From contig OZ252149.1 of assembly GCA_965248755.1 (NCBI GenBank), positions 1,760,001-1,824,000 on the forward strand: a stretch of 64,000 bases of DNA, given 5' to 3'. This DNA comes from Candidatus Latescibacterota bacterium. Its GTDB lineage: Bacteria; Latescibacterota; CBDEFO01. Below the pieces are notes generated by a model, which saw nothing but the letters and a program-made list of their open reading frames with translations, was not told the DNA's origin and made no database searches. Shown piece by piece: positions 50,707 to 62,492 of this stretch (its first letter is position 1; each line of letters begins with the position of its first letter). The translations under genes and the position numbers were made by a program.

Positions 50707-51168
50707 ATGGACTTAACCAAACAGTATCCCAGGAGTCCTTACGAGAAGTTGGGACCTTACATATTCTTGGCCCGCACCCTGGACAAAAGCCGGGCGTACA
50801 ATGCGGCGACGTTGGGAGAGTATACATACAATTGTTCTAACGATGTCATAGTGTTCAAGTTTTTGGGAATTAACCACGAAGAGTTTGCCGAAGCTGCAAA
50901 GGAGAGAAAAGCAGACGAGGAGATGCTCTCGTGGGTCGATGAGAACGCTGAAAATAAGCACTCCTCGGAAGAGATTGAGGCTTTCAACAAAAAGTTTCAG
51001 GACAGAAAGCCTGACACTCCGGAAAAACAGGAATATTTTAACGAACTGCTTATGGACCTAGCTCCGGGGCGGACTGATATTAAGACGTGGTTCGATCTTA
51101 TAGATGCCGATGAGGGACGCAATGTGGTACGGTCAGATTGCCCTTTTCGATCTTCGGTAGCAGCTTGA
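50707..51168 (+). CDS. DUF5069-family protein, copy 1
   Basis: DLTKQYPRSP, LARTLDKSRA, LGEYTYNC, TWFDLIDADEGR. Confidence 0.8.
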   Translation: MDLTKQYPRSPYEKLGPYIFLARTLDKSRAYNAATLGEYTYNCSNDVIVFKFLGINHEEFAEAAKERKADEEMLSWVDENAENKHSSEEIEAFNKKFQDRKPDTPEKQEYFNELLMDLAPGRTDIKTWFDLIDADEGRNVVRSDCPFRSSVAA

Positions 51169-52229: not shown

Positions 52230-52649
52230 ATGGATTTAACTAAAGAATATCCCAGGAGCTCTTATGAGAAGTTAGGACCTTACATATTTTTAGTCCGTAC
52301 GCTCGACAAATGTCGGGCGCACCATGCGGGGAAGTTAGGAGAGTATAAGTACAACTGTCCTTTAGACATAATATTATTCGAATTTCTGGGAATTGACCAC
52401 GAGGAGTTTGCCGAAGCTGCAAAGGAGAGAAAAACAGACGAGGAGATGCTCTCGTGGGTCGATGAGAACGCTGAAAATAAGCACTCCTCGGAAGAGATTG
52501 AGGCCTTCAACAAAAAGTTTCAGGACAGAAGGCCGGATACCCCAGAAAAGCAGGAATATTTCAACGAACGTGTTGCGGAACTCGCTCCAGGGCGGACCGA
52601 TATTGAGACCTGGTTCGATCTTCTGGACACCGATGAAGGACGCATATAG
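52230..52649 (+). CDS. DUF5069-family protein, copy 2
   Basis: Close paralog of 50707-51168 with a near-identical central block. Confidence 0.82.
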   Translation: MDLTKEYPRSSYEKLGPYIFLVRTLDKCRAHHAGKLGEYKYNCPLDIILFEFLGIDHEEFAEAAKERKTDEEMLSWVDENAENKHSSEEIEAFNKKFQDRRPDTPEKQEYFNERVAELAPGRTDIETWFDLLDTDEGRI

Positions 52650-54647: not shown

Positions 54648-56249
54648 ATGGCTGACAATATAGACCTTCAAAAGATGGTAGAGAGGTTGAACCAGGTCGG
54701 GATCGCCCTCTCTGGCGAACGGAATCTGAACAGGCTTTTGGAAATGATCGTGGATAATGCGAGGGACTTTACGAACGCGGATGGGGGAACCCTCTACCTG
54801 GTTCAGGATAAGGACCTTAAGTTCGAGATTCTTCAGAACGGCACTCTAAACACGAGGATGGGAGGCACAAGCGGACAGGAGATAACCTGGCCGCCTGTGC
54901 CCCTTTACATAGAAGGAAAACCCAACGAGTCGCACGTCTCTGCGAATGTGGCAAACACAGGTGAAGCGGTTAATATTCCGGACGTCTACGAAGCGAAAGG
55001 ATTCGATTTTACAGGGACGAGGAATTTTGACGAGAGCTCCGGCTACAGGTCTAAGTCGATGCTCGTTATGCCTATGAGGAATCATGAGGACGACATAATT
55101 GGAGTGCTTCAACTCCTCAACGCAAAGAACCCCGATACAGAGGAACTTATTCCCTTTTCAAGTGACCTTGAGGATTTAATTTCGTCGTTGGCTTCCCAGG
55201 CGGCTGTGGCGATTACCAACGCAGAGCTTATCCAAGAACTGATGAACCTCTTTGATGCCTTTATAAGATCTATCGCGATGGCTATAGATGAAAAATCAGC
55301 CTATACCGCAGGGCACATAAGCAGGGTCGCTGAGTTGACGATGGCGATAGCCCAAAGGGTAAACGATGTTAAAGATGGACCTTATCAAAATGTTCACTTT
55401 ACCCCCGATCAGATGAACGAGCTAAGGGTCGCGGCGTGGATGCACGACGTAGGCAAGATCACAACGCCTGAGTATGTTGTGGATAAGGCTACCAAGCTTG
55501 CGACTATATTCGACAGGGTGGAGATGGTTAAGACGCGCTATGAGATTCTCAAGCGGGATTTGGAAATTAAGGCCCTAAAGACAAAGCTGGATCTTGTGTT
55601 GAAGGGTAAGAAAGATCCTGATGAACTCAAAAAGAGCGGGCGAGATTTGAAAAAGAGACTGAAGGAGACACAAGAGGAGATAGATTTTATCTTAGAATGC
55701 AATATGGGTGCTGAGTTTATGGAGGAAGAGAATATCCAGAAGCTTGAGACTATCGCAAAGAAGACTTACAAATCTAATGGAAAGAGGGAGCATCTCCTTA
55801 CAGAGGACGAATTGCACAACCTTTCGATAAGGGGCTTTGGGACTCTGACGGATGAGGAGAGGAAAGTTATCGAAAATCACGCCCTGGTGAGCATTAAGAT
55901 GCTCTCCCAACTCCCGTTCCCCAAAAAGCTGAAGAACGTTACCGAATACGCGGGAGGACACCACGAGCGTTTAGACGGGACAGGCTATCCTTTAGGACTT
56001 ACAGCAGAACAGCTCCCGCTCGAGGCTCGGATTATAGCAGTAGCAGATGTCTTCGAAGCGCTAACAGCCGGGGACAGACCGTACAAAAAGGCCAAGAAGC
56101 TCTCCGAGGCCATGCGTATTATCGGGTTTATGGTCAAGGACAATCACATCGATAAGGATGTGGTCGAGCTCTCCTTGAAAGAACATGTCTTTCAGGAGTA
56201 CGCAAAAAACGAAATGGATCCGAGTCAGGTGGATGACATAGAGGTATAG
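54648..56249 (+). CDS. GAF + HD-GYP phosphodiesterase
   Basis: GAF (ADGGTLY, YRSKSML..PM, GVLQL.N), YTAGH, WMHDVGK, HHERLDGTGYP, ADVFEALT..RPYK. Confidence 0.92.
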   Translation: MADNIDLQKMVERLNQVGIALSGERNLNRLLEMIVDNARDFTNADGGTLYLVQDKDLKFEILQNGTLNTRMGGTSGQEITWPPVPLYIEGKPNESHVSANVANTGEAVNIPDVYEAKGFDFTGTRNFDESSGYRSKSMLVMPMRNHEDDIIGVLQLLNAKNPDTEELIPFSSDLEDLISSLASQAAVAITNAELIQELMNLFDAFIRSIAMAIDEKSAYTAGHISRVAELTMAIAQRVNDVKDGPYQNVHFTPDQMNELRVAAWMHDVGKITTPEYVVDKATKLATIFDRVEMVKTRYEILKRDLEIKALKTKLDLVLKGKKDPDELKKSGRDLKKRLKETQEEIDFILECNMGAEFMEEENIQKLETIAKKTYKSNGKREHLLTEDELHNLSIRGFGTLTDEERKVIENHALVSIKMLSQLPFPKKLKNVTEYAGGHHERLDGTGYPLGLTAEQLPLEARIIAVADVFEALTAGDRPYKKAKKLSEAMRIIGFMVKDNHIDKDVVELSLKEHVFQEYAKNEMDPSQVDDIEV

Positions 56250-56379
56250 TTTTTCAGATCAAGTTACGGGCCCTCCAAAAGAAACTGACAACAATGTCTG
56301 TTCTACCGAAGAACGTTCTGTGGAATAAGAGATTGAAAATACGATAGATGATAGGGATACTCTTGAACGATAGCTCATA

Positions 56380-59300
56380 ATGTCCATACTCGATACATTC
56401 GTCGCCCTGAGCATCAATACCACCGGCCTGAACCCGCAGGAATCTGAGATCATAGAGATAGGAGCCGTAAAGGTTGAATCAAGCGAGATTGAGGACAAGT
56501 TCAGCCATCTCGTCTCTTCCTCCGGTCCCCGATCCAATCTATCGGGGATTCCCCCAGAGACAGCCCGCGCGATAGACGATGCCGAATTTGTAATCCTGGA
56601 CGTGGAGACGACAGGACTGGACGCCTATTCAGGTGATAGGATATGTGAAATAGGCGCGATTAAACTGCACAAGGATCAGGAGATCGATCAGTTTGGGATG
56701 TTGATCGATCCAGGAAGGCCTATCTCTCAAGAGGCTTTTGATGCAAACCAGATCACCCCCGACATGTTGAAAGATGCTCCTTCAATTGAGCGCGTACTTC
56801 CTGATTTCCTCAAATTTATTGATGATTGTGTCATCGTCGCCTATAACTCCGATTTCGACATGAGCTTTCTCCAGTCTGAACTAAAGCTCTCAGGATATGA
56901 GGCTCTGAACAATACTGTAATAGACTTAATGGCGTTAGCCAAACGTCTTATGCCTCAGACCGGGCGTACTCCGCTTTGGAAAGTAGCCCGGAGCCTGGGT
57001 ATTCCCGCTGAAAATCTGCACCGCGCTCTGCCCGACGCAGAGGTCACTCTGAAGGTATTTCTCCATTTCCTTTCAGTCCTTAAAGCCGACGGGACCAAGA
57101 CAGTAGAGGACATTACATTGGCACTTAATCCACCGTCGGATTTCGAAAGGGATGTGAAGAGGAAGAGCCGTCTGACAGGTATATCCTACGACGATATTAA
57201 AGACGCTCCCCCTCTCAGTGAAGTTCTGGACGACCTCAAGCTCTTTGCAGACGAGCTTCCCATAGTCTCCCACAACGCTCGATTTGTGATGTCCTTCCTC
57301 GACAAGTACAGGTTCGACTGCAGGTTCGACCAGCCGTTCTACGACAGCCTCGAAATTTCAAAGGCTCTCCTCCCCACGGTTACCGATCACAGACTCCCTA
57401 CCCTCGTGCAATTCTTCGGATTAGATTCGGAAGGATCTAAAAGGGCGTTGGACAACGCTGAAGTAACTGCCTCTGTCTTTATGGGTCTTGTAGATAAACT
57501 CAAGGACATGGAATTCGAGATAGTAAAAAAGATGCTGCAGATGATCGCGGGCACGGACTCCAGTCTTAAAGAGATCTTCTCCGAATCCCTCAACAGATCC
57601 GCCAAAGATGTCCTTTCAAGAGCCATAACTACCGAGGGAAGACGTGCAGATCGGAAGGGGGATGCAGAGGATTTGAAAGTGCTTTTCAATATCGGAGGAA
57701 TCTCGACAGATAGAGGTTCACTTGAGGCAGACCTAGATCTCGATCCCCTCGATTCTGAAAATGTCGAAGAGATCTTCAAGGAGGACGGTCCCCTTTCTCA
57801 AGCGATAGAAGGCTACGAAAGGAGAGATCAGCAGGTGGAGATGTCTCAAGCTGTAGCTGACGCCCTTAATGACTCTTCGTTCCTGGCCGCCGAGTCAGGA
57901 ACAGGCACCGGCAAGTCCATGGCTTATCTGATTCCCGCCATCTTCTGGGCAGTATCCAACGGAAAAAGAGTCGTAGTCTCCACAAACACCAAGAACCTGC
58001 AGGAACAACTCTTCTACAAAGACCTCCCTCTCCTGGAGAGAATCCTGGACGTCCCTTTCAGATATTGCCTCTTAAAGGGGAGGTCCAACTACATCTGTCT
58101 AAACAGATGGTACAAAGCCCTCGACCGCATAGAATCTTCGTTTACAGACTACGAGAGGAAAGCCGCTCTGCCCTTAATCCTGTGGGCTGAAGAGACCGAA
58201 ACCGGCGATATAAGTCAAAACACCGCCTTCCAGGCCTGGAGATTCCCTACTCTCTGGAACAAAATCTGCTCCGACGGCGCTTTCTGCAAGGCACAGACGT
58301 GCAGATTCGGCAGGAGATGCTTCGCCACAAATATAAGGAGAGAAGCCCTCAGATCCCACGTTGTAGTGGTCAATCACTCCCTGCTATTCTCCGATATGGT
58401 CTCCGAGAACGCTGTCCTTTCCGAATACGAAGACGTGATATTCGACGAAGCGCACAATGTCGAGAAGGTTGCAACTCAATATCTGGGACGAGAACTCGAT
58501 ATATGGAGGGTCAGGAACCTCTGCGACAGGTTCTATCACAAGGAAAAGAACGAAACAGGCATGATGGTCTCTTTAAGGGACGGACTCAGAACTGCTGACC
58601 TCCAGGATCAGGAACTGAGAGCCTACGATTTCAAAATAGACCGCATAATCGAGGCGACCGCATCCTTCCGGAAGACGGCGCAGGACATCTTTAAAGATAT
58701 GGCGCAAAAGATAGGGGACGAAAGTGGAACAGACGCTTATACCGAGAAGATAAGATACAAAAAGGCGTATAACATCTTTGAGCTCTTGCAAGAGGAGTTA
58801 GACGGATTTGCGGATTCGGGTTACTTTCTGAAGTCAGAAATATCGCAGCTCCTAAACTGGCTCAAAGAGCTACCCGGTGACTCCTTCCCTGCACAGGAGG
58901 AACTCACGCAGGAGTCAGAGGGCCAGAGAGCCGAGATAAACGAGATATTGGACGACTTAGACTTCCTCTTAAAAGCCGAAGACGAAGCTTTTGTCTATTG
59001 GCTTGAACTCCCCAACAAAAAGGATAGTTTCGATGTTAAGATGTGCGCTGCACCGCTCGATATAGCCTCTCACCTCAAGGATCGGCTCTACAAAGGACTC
59101 AATACAGCCATCTTCACCTCAGCCACGATAGCCATACGGGGCAAGTTCAAATATTTTTTGGAGCGATTGGGAATAGACAAGATGGAGGAAGATCGAGTTA
59201 AGACCTTCTGTGTCAGTTCTCCCTTCGACTACGACCGTCAGACACTCGTCTGCATACCCTCATTTTTGCCATCCCCTAAAGAATCCTCTCTGTATCAGGA

Positions 59301-59874
59301 GAGAACATCACTACTTTTGCGAGATCTCTTCACAAAGGCCAAAAGAGGAGCACTGGTCCTCTTCACGTCCTACGGGATGCTCAACAAGATGTACAACGAG
59401 CTTAAAGACCCCTTGGAAGCAGAGGGCATACGCCTCTTAGGACAGGGCATTTCGGGTGCCCGCTCCAACATCACAGAACGATTCAAAGAGGACAAAAGCT
59501 CTGTCCTTTTGGGAACGGACAGCTTCTGGGAGGGAATAGATGTTCCGGGAGAAGCTCTACAGATTTTGGTGCTTACCAGGCTCCCCTTCGCCGTCCCCAC
59601 AGAACCCATTGTAGAAGCTCATATAGAGGAGTTTGAGAAAAAGGGCAAAGACCCGTTCAGATATTACTCTATACCCGAAGCAGCTATAAGATTCCGACAG
59701 GGATTCGGAAGGCTCATCAGGAATAAAGACGACAAAGGGGTTATAGTTATCCTCGACAACAGAGTGATAAAGACCTGGTACGGCAGAGTTTTTTTGGATC
59801 TACTCCCCACAAAATACAGGGTATTCGGCTCGCAGAAGGATATGGTAGAAAAGGTGTGTGAATGGTTCGGCTAA
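56380..59874 (+). CDS. dinG: Exonuclease-DinG-family helicase with nested double DEDDh domain
   Basis: GTGTGKS, LKGRSNYIC, Fe-S-type Cys cluster, NHSLL, FDEAH, TSAT, SFWEGID, QGFGRLIR; two DnaQ-like domains at the N-terminus. Confidence 0.92.
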   Translation: MSILDTFVALSINTTGLNPQESEIIEIGAVKVESSEIEDKFSHLVSSSGPRSNLSGIPPETARAIDDAEFVILDVETTGLDAYSGDRICEIGAIKLHKDQEIDQFGMLIDPGRPISQEAFDANQITPDMLKDAPSIERVLPDFLKFIDDCVIVAYNSDFDMSFLQSELKLSGYEALNNTVIDLMALAKRLMPQTGRTPLWKVARSLGIPAENLHRALPDAEVTLKVFLHFLSVLKADGTKTVEDITLALNPPSDFERDVKRKSRLTGISYDDIKDAPPLSEVLDDLKLFADELPIVSHNARFVMSFLDKYRFDCRFDQPFYDSLEISKALLPTVTDHRLPTLVQFFGLDSEGSKRALDNAEVTASVFMGLVDKLKDMEFEIVKKMLQMIAGTDSSLKEIFSESLNRSAKDVLSRAITTEGRRADRKGDAEDLKVLFNIGGISTDRGSLEADLDLDPLDSENVEEIFKEDGPLSQAIEGYERRDQQVEMSQAVADALNDSSFLAAESGTGTGKSMAYLIPAIFWAVSNGKRVVVSTNTKNLQEQLFYKDLPLLERILDVPFRYCLLKGRSNYICLNRWYKALDRIESSFTDYERKAALPLILWAEETETGDISQNTAFQAWRFPTLWNKICSDGAFCKAQTCRFGRRCFATNIRREALRSHVVVVNHSLLFSDMVSENAVLSEYEDVIFDEAHNVEKVATQYLGRELDIWRVRNLCDRFYHKEKNETGMMVSLRDGLRTADLQDQELRAYDFKIDRIIEATASFRKTAQDIFKDMAQKIGDESGTDAYTEKIRYKKAYNIFELLQEELDGFADSGYFLKSEISQLLNWLKELPGDSFPAQEELTQESEGQRAEINEILDDLDFLLKAEDEAFVYWLELPNKKDSFDVKMCAAPLDIASHLKDRLYKGLNTAIFTSATIAIRGKFKYFLERLGIDKMEEDRVKTFCVSSPFDYDRQTLVCIPSFLPSPKESSLYQERTSLLLRDLFTKAKRGALVLFTSYGMLNKMYNELKDPLEAEGIRLLGQGISGARSNITERFKEDKSSVLLGTDSFWEGIDVPGEALQILVLTRLPFAVPTEPIVEAHIEEFEKKGKDPFRYYSIPEAAIRFRQGFGRLIRNKDDKGVIVILDNRVIKTWYGRVFLDLLPTKYRVFGSQKDMVEKVCEWFG

Positions 59875-61302: not shown

Positions 61303-62166
61303 TTAAGCAACCTGGGGTAGTAGATAAAATTGTTTTCTCCACTCTTTTGGGGTCTTATATCCCAGGGATGAATGAAGCCTGTTCTTGTTGTAATTATCGA
61401 TCCACTGAGATATGATCTTCTCAGCCTGTTCAAAGGATTCAAACTTGTGAAGCCAAACACACTCTTGCTTGAGGGTCCTGAAAAAACGCTCTACAACACC
61501 GTTCCAATCGGGTTTACCACTTGGTATGTATTCCTGACGAATTCCCCAATATTCGGTACTGGCCAAATAGGCCCGAGCCAAAAAGATGGAACCATTGTCA
61601 GAGCGCAAAGTGAGACCCTGGGGGACAGCCTCCTTGGAAGTGTATCGAGAGATCACGGCCCGATCCAGGGCATCTGTGGCCTCCAGTGCCCTCCCTTTTC
61701 GACTAAAACGATACCCAGGAACCTCCCGGCTTCCGTTGTCCACCACCGCAATAAGAGGACACCAACCATCTTTTCCACAGTAAATCTTTGTCAAGTCACT
61801 CGACCACAAACTGTCGGGACTATCCACCACAGAACGCTTCTGGGCAACCTGTGGCCCCTTTCTCCCGGGACGATTCCACAGCTTACACTGCCACCCCTTA
61901 AGCTTCATTATCCTATGAACCTTCTTAACGTTGACACATTCCCCTTCCTTGAAACGAAGATGCGCCCAAACCCGCCTGTGACCAAATGCCTCTTCTTGGT
62001 CCAGTATCCCTCGAATACGAAAAGCAAGCTCCTCATCTATCACAGGCTCTTTAACAGAAGAACTGACACCTCTATCCCTAAACCTATACAGAGTCGAACG
62101 ATGCAAACCCAAAGCCAAAGCTACCACCTTGCGGGAATAGCCTCGACCCAAAAACCGCCCACTCAA
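61303..62166 (-). CDS. IS3 OrfB (DDE integrase core)
   Basis: WSSDLT, LRSDNGS, NGVVERFFRTLKQE, YN..RLHSSLGY.TP. Confidence 0.93.
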   Translation of the reverse strand: MSGRFLGRGYSRKVVALALGLHRSTLYRFRDRGVSSSVKEPVIDEELAFRIRGILDQEEAFGHRRVWAHLRFKEGECVNVKKVHRIMKLKGWQCKLWNRPGRKGPQVAQKRSVVDSPDSLWSSDLTKIYCGKDGWCPLIAVVDNGSREVPGYRFSRKGRALEATDALDRAVISRYTSKEAVPQGLTLRSDNGSIFLARAYLASTEYWGIRQEYIPSGKPDWNGVVERFFRTLKQECVWLHKFESFEQAEKIISQWIDNYNKNRLHSSLGYKTPKEWRKQFYLLPQVA

Positions 62167-62492
62167 GGCAACCGCTTCGTTTTTTTTAGACGGGCTACCT
62201 CTTCGAGTATCTCCAACTGGAGCGTCAACTGCCCTACCTTGCGCTCCAACCGGCTAACCTCTCGCTCCTTCGGATCCTTGCGACCACGCCGAGACTTCAG
62301 ACTCTCCTGGCCCCCTTCTAAGAAACTATCACGCCAAGCATACGCCTGCGACTGGCTAATTCCATTCTTACGACACACCTCAGATAGATCTGCTCCTCTC
62401 AAAAGAGCCAACACAATCTCTCCCTTACGGGTCGCCGTCCAGCGCTTACCATCTTTCACTTCGGGGCTCGACACCTTGACCTCCCTTCTCAA
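62163..62492 (-). CDS. IS3 OrfA (HTH)
   Basis: RWTATRKGEIVL..CRKNGIS...W...LERKVGQL. An A8 run at 62180-62187 (minus strand) is a likely -1 frameshift site. Confidence 0.88.
   Translation of the reverse strand: MRREVKVSSPEVKDGKRWTATRKGEIVLALLRGADLSEVCRKNGISQSQAYAWRDSFLEGGQESLKSRRGRKDPKEREVSRLERKVGQLTLQLEILEEVARLKKTKRLP

Follow-up and report, generated by a model that had tools for sequence, protein, structure and literature searches.

We found that a complete DEDDh exonuclease domain is nested within a second, catalytically substituted DEDDh domain at the N-terminus of a DinG-type helicase, which is encoded in a 64,000-nucleotide (nt) stretch of a Candidatus Latescibacterota bacterium (assembly GCA_965248755.1, contig OZ252149.1, positions 1,760,001 to 1,824,000; hereafter the window, whose numbering is used for the gene and its surroundings). 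The gene, ExoDinG (56380..59874, forward strand), is a single open frame of 1164 amino acids (aa), and its product scored 611 bits against TIGR01407 (cut-off 547.7) and 766 bits against NF005981, below the cut-off of 789. The inserted domain is an in-frame copy of a stand-alone gene of the same genome, belonging to a family of exonucleases with a WYL domain (Exo-WYL), and the copy was placed in the ancestor of the genus. We refer to the source genome of the window as G000 and to a second species of the same genus as G001. Comparisons with known systems suggest that the protein is probably an ExoDinG in which cutting is carried out by the tethered foreign domain, with the old domain left as a spacer.

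The nested layout had been proposed in an earlier model-written reading of the window (the original prediction), and the profile scan named there as a check confirmed it. Three matches to the Pfam RNase_T profile were obtained in a partial, full and partial order, so that both outer halves as well as the inner domain were recovered: aa 14-46 matched profile positions 7-42 (E 1.4e-5, for the fragment scanned alone), aa 71-227 matched positions 1-164 (E 2.7e-36), and aa 264-367 matched positions 55-164 (E 1e-10). A profile made from 28 DinG orthologues with a single exonuclease domain agreed, aligning aa 1-47 to its positions 1-47, aa 69-246 to 6-178 and aa 263-419 to 56-211, with 61, 116 and 147 bits, respectively. 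The outer catalytic positions, D-E-D-H-D in active enzymes, read S11, N13, V303, K354 and N359, and the inner positions are complete (D74, E76, D160, H214 and D219); all ten residues are as originally listed. The outer scaffold is retained, as had also been claimed, since 40 of the 45 conserved non-catalytic positions, defined from 14 intact DinG orthologues, are kept versus none of the five catalytic ones (Fisher p 1e-4). The outer domain of G001 keeps 38 of these 45 positions, the degenerate exonuclease domains of non-nested DinG proteins keep 17-32, and the outer domain of G000 is 45-50% identical to intact DinG orthologues. The inner domain has the full RNase_T match, the D-E-D-H-D residues and the predicted epsilon-like fold of a DEDDh exonuclease.

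The canonical N-terminal DEDDh position of ExoDinG is filled by the split outer domain. Its N-half (aa 1-63, 56380..56568) holds strands 1-3 and the start of the cap helix, with S11 and N13 in place of D and E, and its C-half (aa 265-375, 57172..57504) carries V303, K354 and N359 in place of D, H and D and retains H298. Between them are located the inner exonuclease (aa 64-246, 56569..57117) and an insert tail (aa 247-264, 57118..57171), which consists of donor linker from past the donor's present stop (aa 251-260) followed by four codons resembling the donor start. A helical bundle with a linker to the motor (aa 376-470, 57505..57789; model helices 379-389 and 397-415, and 414-435 at low confidence) leads to the DinG/XPD-type superfamily 2 (SF2) helicase (57790..59874); all of these parts lie on the forward strand. 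The Walker A motif (GTGTGKS), the DEAH motif and the C-terminal motor domain of a DinG-type SF2 motor are all present, and the four iron-sulphur (FeS) cysteines, C573, C636, C641 and C647, are invariant across 30 aligned sequences. GC content is level across both junctions.

To locate the break point, we aligned both outer halves with the orthologue L008. The N-half, aa 1-63, aligned to residues 1-57 (54% identity, one 6-residue gap), and the C-half resumed at S263/R264, which correspond to residues 56-57 (39% identity). Because the N-half reaches R63 and the C-half resumes at S263/R264, the Arg of the conserved helix after strand 3 stands on both sides of the insert, which comprises 201 codons (A64-R264). 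The stretch originally assigned to the outer N-half, aa 1-46, is a real DEDDh half, but by this alignment its end is R63. Judged from the aligned sequences, the insertion breaks the cap helix, the helix after strand 3, of the host exonuclease at R63. In Staphylococcus aureus DinG, the first helix after strand 3 is described as the cap helix gripping the 3'-terminal base (PMC12345164, excerpts).

The loop between strand 3 and this helix contains 11 residues here versus five in all of the 40 orthologues, out of 48, that were readable by pattern. At the six extra codons lies one copy of a 21-nt hairpin repeat (CCCCGAT-N7-ATCGGGG, 56527..56547), which is read in frame as aa 50-56. This hairpin was observed in 237 copies in G000, versus 0.04 expected, and in 268 copies in G001; among the 41 genomes searched, one other carried a single copy and 38 carried none. 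Filled and empty sites differed mostly by 19-21 nt, and gain or loss of the hairpin was observed between the two species as well as among the copies of an IS3-like element, of which 15 are filled and 56 empty. Within frames of at least 150 codons, some of them spurious, 72 of the 237 copies were located, and the hairpin region gave an uninformative folding z of -1.7. No copy was found at the donor locus of either species (L035 and L036), so the hairpin was rejected as the agent of the domain insertion and is taken as a separate event.

Misassembly was ruled out, since the nesting is present in two species and the junctions are borne by contigs of three studies. The protein of G001 carries the same nesting, with 95% identity over residues 1-1163, and all four members of the 90% identity cluster are nested with the same ten catalytic-position residues. 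In sequencing run X1, which is possibly the source of G000 itself, one contig covers the whole stretch. Runs X4 and X5 belong to two other studies, and in each of them one contig crosses the 5' junction (56363-56651 and 56100-56651) and another the 3' junction (56653-58100 and 56625-58100), which provides the junction-spanning sequence that the original prediction had called for; run X9 covers the stretch only in pieces. A contig joint, 56307-56526, appeared in X4 and X5; its shorter arm amounts to 24 letters, and dispersed repeats lie at either end. Side by side, the two repeats of this joint occur nowhere else in G000 (0 cases), and dispersed repeats are its likely explanation. A second dispersed palindromic repeat, which we take to be a GTAG-type repetitive extragenic palindrome (REP), is located upstream of dinG at 56283-56312 and has about 20-30 copies by pattern.

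Among the matches listed in our searches, the same nesting was found only in this genus, in two known species. In a survey of 168 Latescibacterota genomes, 84 matched the outer C-half, and two matches in one frame, of 1166 codons, were obtained only in G000 and G001; the other DinG frames of the survey reached at most 1045 codons, several of them ended by contig ends. The 76 genomes of one family within the 168 gave no match to the outer C-half. A donor-type domain was present in 12 of the 168 genomes and lay within a DinG frame only in G000 and G001. A representative search over 1.84 billion proteins yielded one full-length match, P0002, among the best 150 listed; the same protein was the sole nested one among 120 listed of 4411 matches in a search over 5.8 billion proteins, and a second search of that size gave no nested protein among 120 listed of 401. 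One of the nine loci in one contig scan was nested, in a genome of the same genus, and none of 11 in the other, and a nesting screen over 390 fetched proteins picked out only the four cluster members. These protein and contig searches favour relatives of this sequence and cover distant DEDDh proteins less, among which independent nestings may exist.

The donor gene is located outside the window, at G000:C1:2371503-2372072 (L035, minus strand), where it overlaps the end of obgE near dnaA. Its counterpart in the second species, G001:C8:483283-483852 (L036, plus strand), likewise overlaps the end of obgE and is intact, encoding 190 aa. The insert aligns with the donor without gaps over donor codons 4-186, with 72% nucleotide and 66% amino-acid identity (range 65-66%), a synonymous divergence (dS) of about 1.07 and a non-synonymous divergence (dN) of about 0.21. 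Between the two species dS is only about 0.03-0.15, which indicates that the copy event is several times older than the species split. Separate origins of the inner and outer domains, which the original prediction had proposed to examine by tree, were supported by a tree of 69 rows; this and the other trees were built by quick methods only. The inner domain and the donor formed a clade among stand-alone exonucleases (SH-like approximate likelihood ratio test, SH-aLRT, 95), the outer domain grouped with DinG exonucleases (SH-aLRT 95), and monophyly of the two domains was rejected by the approximately unbiased test (p-AU 0.0003).

The closest database relatives of the inner domain are mostly Exo-WYL proteins. 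A profile of 30 such proteins gave 269 bits on the inner domain, and the best members of the family are 46-52% identical to the insert. A C-terminal WYL domain was found in donor relatives at three of four phylum loci scanned and in most top database matches, and it has been truncated off the donor in both species. The ExoDinG protein gave no match to PF13280, the single WYL match of the genome lies elsewhere, and the trace of WYL in the nested protein consists of linker remnants only. The insert matches the donor for 10 codons beyond the donor's present stop (19/30 nt), and the read-through fits the Exo-WYL linker; the donor was therefore longer at the time of copying. The stand-alone DEDDh-WYL exonucleases form a widespread family (L066, L067 and L069; P0124-P0128 and P0275-P0390), on which no paper was found in our literature search. 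In a second stand-alone DEDDh type of the phylum (L070-L074 and L077), the exonuclease is preceded by about 90 extra N-terminal aa.

In G000, codon 16 of the donor, which belongs to the first catalytic motif, is a stop. The donors of the two species differ by 28 non-silent and 16 silent changes, a ratio of 0.51 versus 0.14-0.23 in three control genes (p 0.005), and polarisation assigned 11 differences as derived in G000 and five in G001, with 11 unassignable. By its sequence, the donor is a pseudogene in G000. The only DEDDh matches in G000 are the nested gene and the donor locus, and the nested copy is therefore the sole intact DEDDh domain of that genome.

The original prediction had described the inner domain as PolC-like by its ends, which was not borne out. 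PolC matches are at most 44% identical to the insert versus 65-66% for the stand-alone paralogue of the same genome, the 12 PolC-type rows of the 69-row tree stand apart from the inner domain, and the sole PF07733 gene of G000 is a 1157-aa DnaE-type frame without an RNase_T match. PolC profiles and structures do score high on the inner domain, and the contig joint in X4 and X5 could be cited for a chimera. Given the paralogue, the position of the PolC rows, the junctions in two species and three studies, and the short side and repeat-bound ends of that joint, we reject an origin from PolC or a chimeric assembly as highly improbable. The single DnaE-type polymerase (G000:C1:717821-718591, L078) has PHP metal motifs that seem intact by eye. 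If they are, proofreading would not have to rely on a DEDDh protein.

The junctions also bear on how the insert arrived. In G001, CTGAA repeats flank the donor 603 bp (201 codons) apart; the upstream copy reads TGAA in G000. Codons 261-263 of the nested gene match the first three codons of the donor at 6/9 nt (5/9 for the G000 donor) versus 3-4/9 for the colinear donor sequence, and the background for at least 6/9 is 1.4%. Donor-start-like codons at the end of the insert are what a looped-out circle and one crossover would leave, and arrival of the insert as a looped-out gene circle integrated by a single crossover is possible, if somewhat doubtful; the pattern was seen by eye on nine letters, and the family profile also aligns these residues colinearly, which counts against a circle. 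A fuller scheme, in which a CTGAA-bounded circle joined at a CCG microhomology in the cap helix, moved the free exonuclease onto the DinG motor and left the donor dispensable, appears unlikely. Under this fuller scheme, the first codons of the donor would now close the insert and restore the helix that their arrival had broken, the tethered nuclease would no longer share the ATPase contact of the host domain, and the case would document a bacterial in-frame transplant of an enzyme into its homologue in which the donor, the host and the junctions can all still be read. Nothing relevant was found in the literature searched for bacterial circle-mediated in-frame duplication. That the 3' junction carries a target-site duplication of host codons was rejected, as only 3/9 nt match. 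Gene conversion by the donor may explain why identical insert and donor codons are commoner in the 5' third of the insert (33/45 versus 33/71, p 0.007; 37/46 in G001), but this third was picked by eye and a 3' block is also poor in silent change.

Structure prediction, another of the checks named in the original prediction, modelled the split outer halves as a DEDDh fold. Two AlphaFold2 runs were made on opposite alignments, one of which placed the relatives all on the inner domain and the other on the outer, and the models still folded both domains with the DEDDh order of strands and helices. The mean predicted local distance difference test score (pLDDT) was 84.7 and 81.5, and the predicted template modelling score (pTM) 0.60 and 0.67. 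In the model, the outer N-half forms strands 6-14, 24-33 and 36-44, the linker aa 49-61 is disordered (pLDDT <50), and a helix, 254-266, runs from the donor tail into the host cap helix and completes the latter; three helices (254-266, 270-273 and 279-290) precede the strand 295-297. The inner-domain model aligned with Escherichia coli epsilon (2gui) with Z 24.8 and a root-mean-square deviation (rmsd) of 1.1 over 164 residues. The alignment of the full model with S. aureus DinG (8zef) began at residue 1 and covered 859 of 887 residues (Z 34.6, rmsd 4.8), and we infer from it that the outer domain would occupy the canonical ExoDinG place on the helicase.

Comparisons between the two species showed different constraint along the protein. 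The outer domain has 10 non-silent and four silent differences (ratio 0.79, near neutral), the inner domain nine and six (0.45), and the helicase about 38 and 67 (0.16). The contrast of outer domain versus helicase was the sole significant one (p 0.018; inner versus helicase, p 0.09). The outer core was thus kept over the long run and is weakly constrained now, and the case for selection on the inner domain is its long-term record.

Loss of the DinG exonuclease was also observed among relatives of the nested gene. Of 48 non-nested DinG loci, comprising the 28 best ExoDinG matches and 20 picked from 82 rows to cover three families, 14 read D-E-D-H-D, 19 read D-E-E-H-D and 15 have lost more. Since these 15 decayed without an insertion, catalytic loss needs none here, and the claim of the original prediction that the insertion displaced catalysis is unproven. 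The nested helicase is sister (SH-aLRT 97) to a clade of 29 rows, none of which is canonical (17 D-E-E-H-D, 12 with further losses). In a large DinG clade, HNAxFD and HRAL are replaced by HxGRFE and HKAL. Decay of the DinG exonuclease without insertion was found phylum-wide (L009-L018, L023, L029, L030 and L080-L099), and its repeated occurrence is a side result of this work.

It is plausible, though tentatively so, that the host exonuclease was already weak or dead and offered a tolerant landing site, and that the insertion gave DinG back a nuclease. The absence of any canonical row in the sister clade fits this order, as do two features of the outer domain: its HNARFV has an R in common with the HxGRFE of that clade, and GTG, the codon of V303, is a single change away from a Glu codon but two away from an Asp codon. 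In other respects, however, the outer domain departs less from the canonical form than the sister clade does (40/45 versus 29-36), and it is close to intact orthologues at 45-50% identity; D-to-E enzymes may still be active, and the argument relies on quick trees. This order is compatible with a nuclease replaced from within and differs from the causal order originally proposed. The reverse order is tentative as well: the 3'-end pocket of an active domain may have been wrecked by the insertion or by the hairpin located six codons ahead, after which the catalytic codons drifted. In its favour, the break lies in the very helix described as gripping the 3' base in S. aureus DinG (PMC12345164, excerpts), and 8-9 changes are required among the 15 nt of the five codons (counted by hand), about what neutral drift since the copy would give (half of the dS of 1.07); but this count equally fits an earlier death, and decay without insertion is common (15/48). 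The two orders, an outer domain dead before the insertion and one dead because of it, are about equally probable.

From the sequence comparisons, we consider it likely that the nuclease of this ExoDinG was replaced from within by a relative. A 201-codon copy of the stand-alone Exo-WYL-family gene entered the host cap helix in frame in the genus ancestor; the host domain has lost its five catalytic residues and kept its core, and the inserted domain has kept all five. In the predicted structure, the host domain retains its fold around the insertion and is docked on the helicase in the manner of S. aureus DinG, and the inner domain is looped out between the disordered linker and the helix. The protein would act like other ExoDinGs, as a 5'-3' FeS helicase with a metal-dependent 3'-5' exonuclease, presumably working at forks, R-loops or lesions on the ends of single-stranded DNA or RNA. 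The inner domain would cut, and the outer domain would serve as a passive structural spacer that could not be removed without loss of the helicase docking surface. In the excerpts of the published studies, S. aureus DinG combines 3'-5' exonuclease with 5'-3' helicase activity, and the two cooperate, are both needed for crosslink resistance and are both inhibited by high ATP (PMC12345164), and an earlier study reported inhibition of its nuclease by ATP and detected no helicase activity (PMC3270479). Bacillus subtilis DinG is reported to clear R-loops (PMC12525004, excerpts) and Listeria monocytogenes DinG to break down unprocessed rRNA (PMC12774634, excerpts).

Several observations weigh against this replacement. 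Between the species, the inner domain differs significantly neither from neutral expectation (p 0.13) nor from its outer counterpart (p 0.70), and its long-term ratio of 0.2 includes the donor branch. In G001 the donor is intact (190 aa), so that the inner domain is not the sole exonuclease there, and the sister lineages manage without a canonical DinG exonuclease. The pTM values are only 0.60-0.67, so the models do not fix the placement of the inner domain, and the structure searches matched the inner domain, with the outer one covered only in the full-model alignment, whose residue pairs are not displayed. The same weak statistics for recent selection, the donor copy retained in G001 and the repeated loss of exonuclease residues in sister lineages would suit a merely tolerated fusion, in which DinG needs only its helicase and the inner domain keeps the donor's job apart from the motor or is being lost. 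We consider this rather unlikely, given that the inner frame and its five residues survived a synonymous divergence near 1 while the outer domain lost all five, and that in G000 the donor, not the insert, decayed. The original prediction had further proposed the dead outer domain as a structural or DNA-binding platform. A platform selected to bind nucleic acid and feed the inner active site would accord with the acidic catalytic residues now being neutral or basic and with the retained H298, the equivalent of the DNA-contacting H90 of S. aureus DinG (PMC12345164, excerpts), and a DinG review raises such a role for pExoDinG as an untried idea (PMC11981726, excerpts). The 10 non-silent versus four silent differences between the species leave the proposal unsupported, being near neutral and significantly different from the helicase (ratio 0.79 versus 0.16), and the cap helix of the outer domain is interrupted and G001 keeps fewer conserved positions than G000 (38 versus 40 of 45); we judge such a platform to be quite unlikely.

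The architecture is a real variant of ExoDinG, with evolutionary more than functional novelty. It resembles ExoDinG (S. aureus 8zef/9ii8; TIGR01407) in having an N-terminal DEDDh fold, a helical bundle and a DinG-type SF2 motor in one chain, but the domain in the canonical position is dead and split, and all five catalytic residues are supplied by the foreign DEDDh domain in its cap helix. S. aureus DinG is described without FeS cysteines (PMC3270479, excerpts), whereas the nested protein has four. In pExoDinG, for example of Caulobacter vibrioides, an incomplete exonuclease-fold domain likewise precedes an FeS helicase, but the excerpts of the review describe that domain as DEDDy-like, with a single helix connecting strand 3 to strand 4, and the protein as lacking an active nuclease (PMC11981726); the nested protein has three helices and an intact inner domain, and its dead outer domain is a recent ExoDinG-type DEDDh domain, unlike the reduced topology of pExoDinG. 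The source family of the insert, the DEDDh-WYL exonucleases (PF00929 + PF13280) of Latescibacterota, Omnitrophota and others, differs in its WYL domain, which was not carried into the nested protein and which the donor has lost too. Tandem multi-DEDDh proteins also have two or more DEDDh domains per chain, but head to tail; we found these in eight of the 390 fetched proteins (P0123, P0136, P0140, P0145, P0152, P0156, P0165 and P0245), and none is a DinG. Among them, P0123 and P0140 comprise a 1045-aa protein that combines three tandem DEDDh domains with GIY-YIG and UVR domains, and a PolC whose two exonuclease domains stand in tandem.

Recursive insertion and pseudo-ExoDinG are each known separately. 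Intradomain insertions are widespread (PMC12328240, excerpts), and the insertion of a domain into its homologue has been described for HABAS domains, as in Si3 of the RNA polymerase beta' subunit (PMC11515920, excerpts). The HABAS domains are described there as small, non-catalytic and ancient, whereas here an enzyme domain was inserted, host catalysis was lost and the donor gene is still present. In the excerpts of the DinG review, which lists ten subgroups including ExoDinG and pExoDinG, neither 'tandem' nor 'two exonuclease' is mentioned (PMC11981726). No paper on a nested or doubled exonuclease, or on DEDDh within DEDDh, was found in the literature searched, largely outside subscription papers, in line with the original prediction, which knew of no such description. 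Domain insertions are common, but the donor is seldom still in the genome and the host is seldom a homologue of the insert. Because the donor, the host and both junctions can be read here, together with how the displaced parts decayed, the gene offers a compact natural experiment on enzyme-domain swapping. It bears on whether the nuclease-helicase coupling and ATP inhibition of ExoDinG, as given in excerpts of PMC3270479 and PMC12345164, need a docked exonuclease or whether a tether suffices. Its reach is limited to one genus of uncultured bacteria with no new chemistry, and the nuclease role is predicted.

The genes next to dinG, a GAF/HD-domain gene, an open reading frame (ORF) without an assigned family and a transposase, give no clue to function. 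The typeIV_DinG models of PADLOC match the motor; the neighbours seen are the three genes just named, and no scan aimed at CRISPR was made. With CasDinG of type IV CRISPR in mind, the single-copy orthologues throughout the phylum suggest a housekeeping gene. A promoter scan gave one site versus 1.2 expected by chance, and no RNA run was listed as carrying the gene. The transposase, IS3-like by eye and made of two ORFs (61303-62492, minus strand), has about 70 copies in the genome and is absent from the matching site of G001, where a different ORF of 345 aa is located downstream of dinG. Two similar small paralogues of 153 and 139 aa (50707-51168 and 52230-52649, plus strand) are both present in G001 too.

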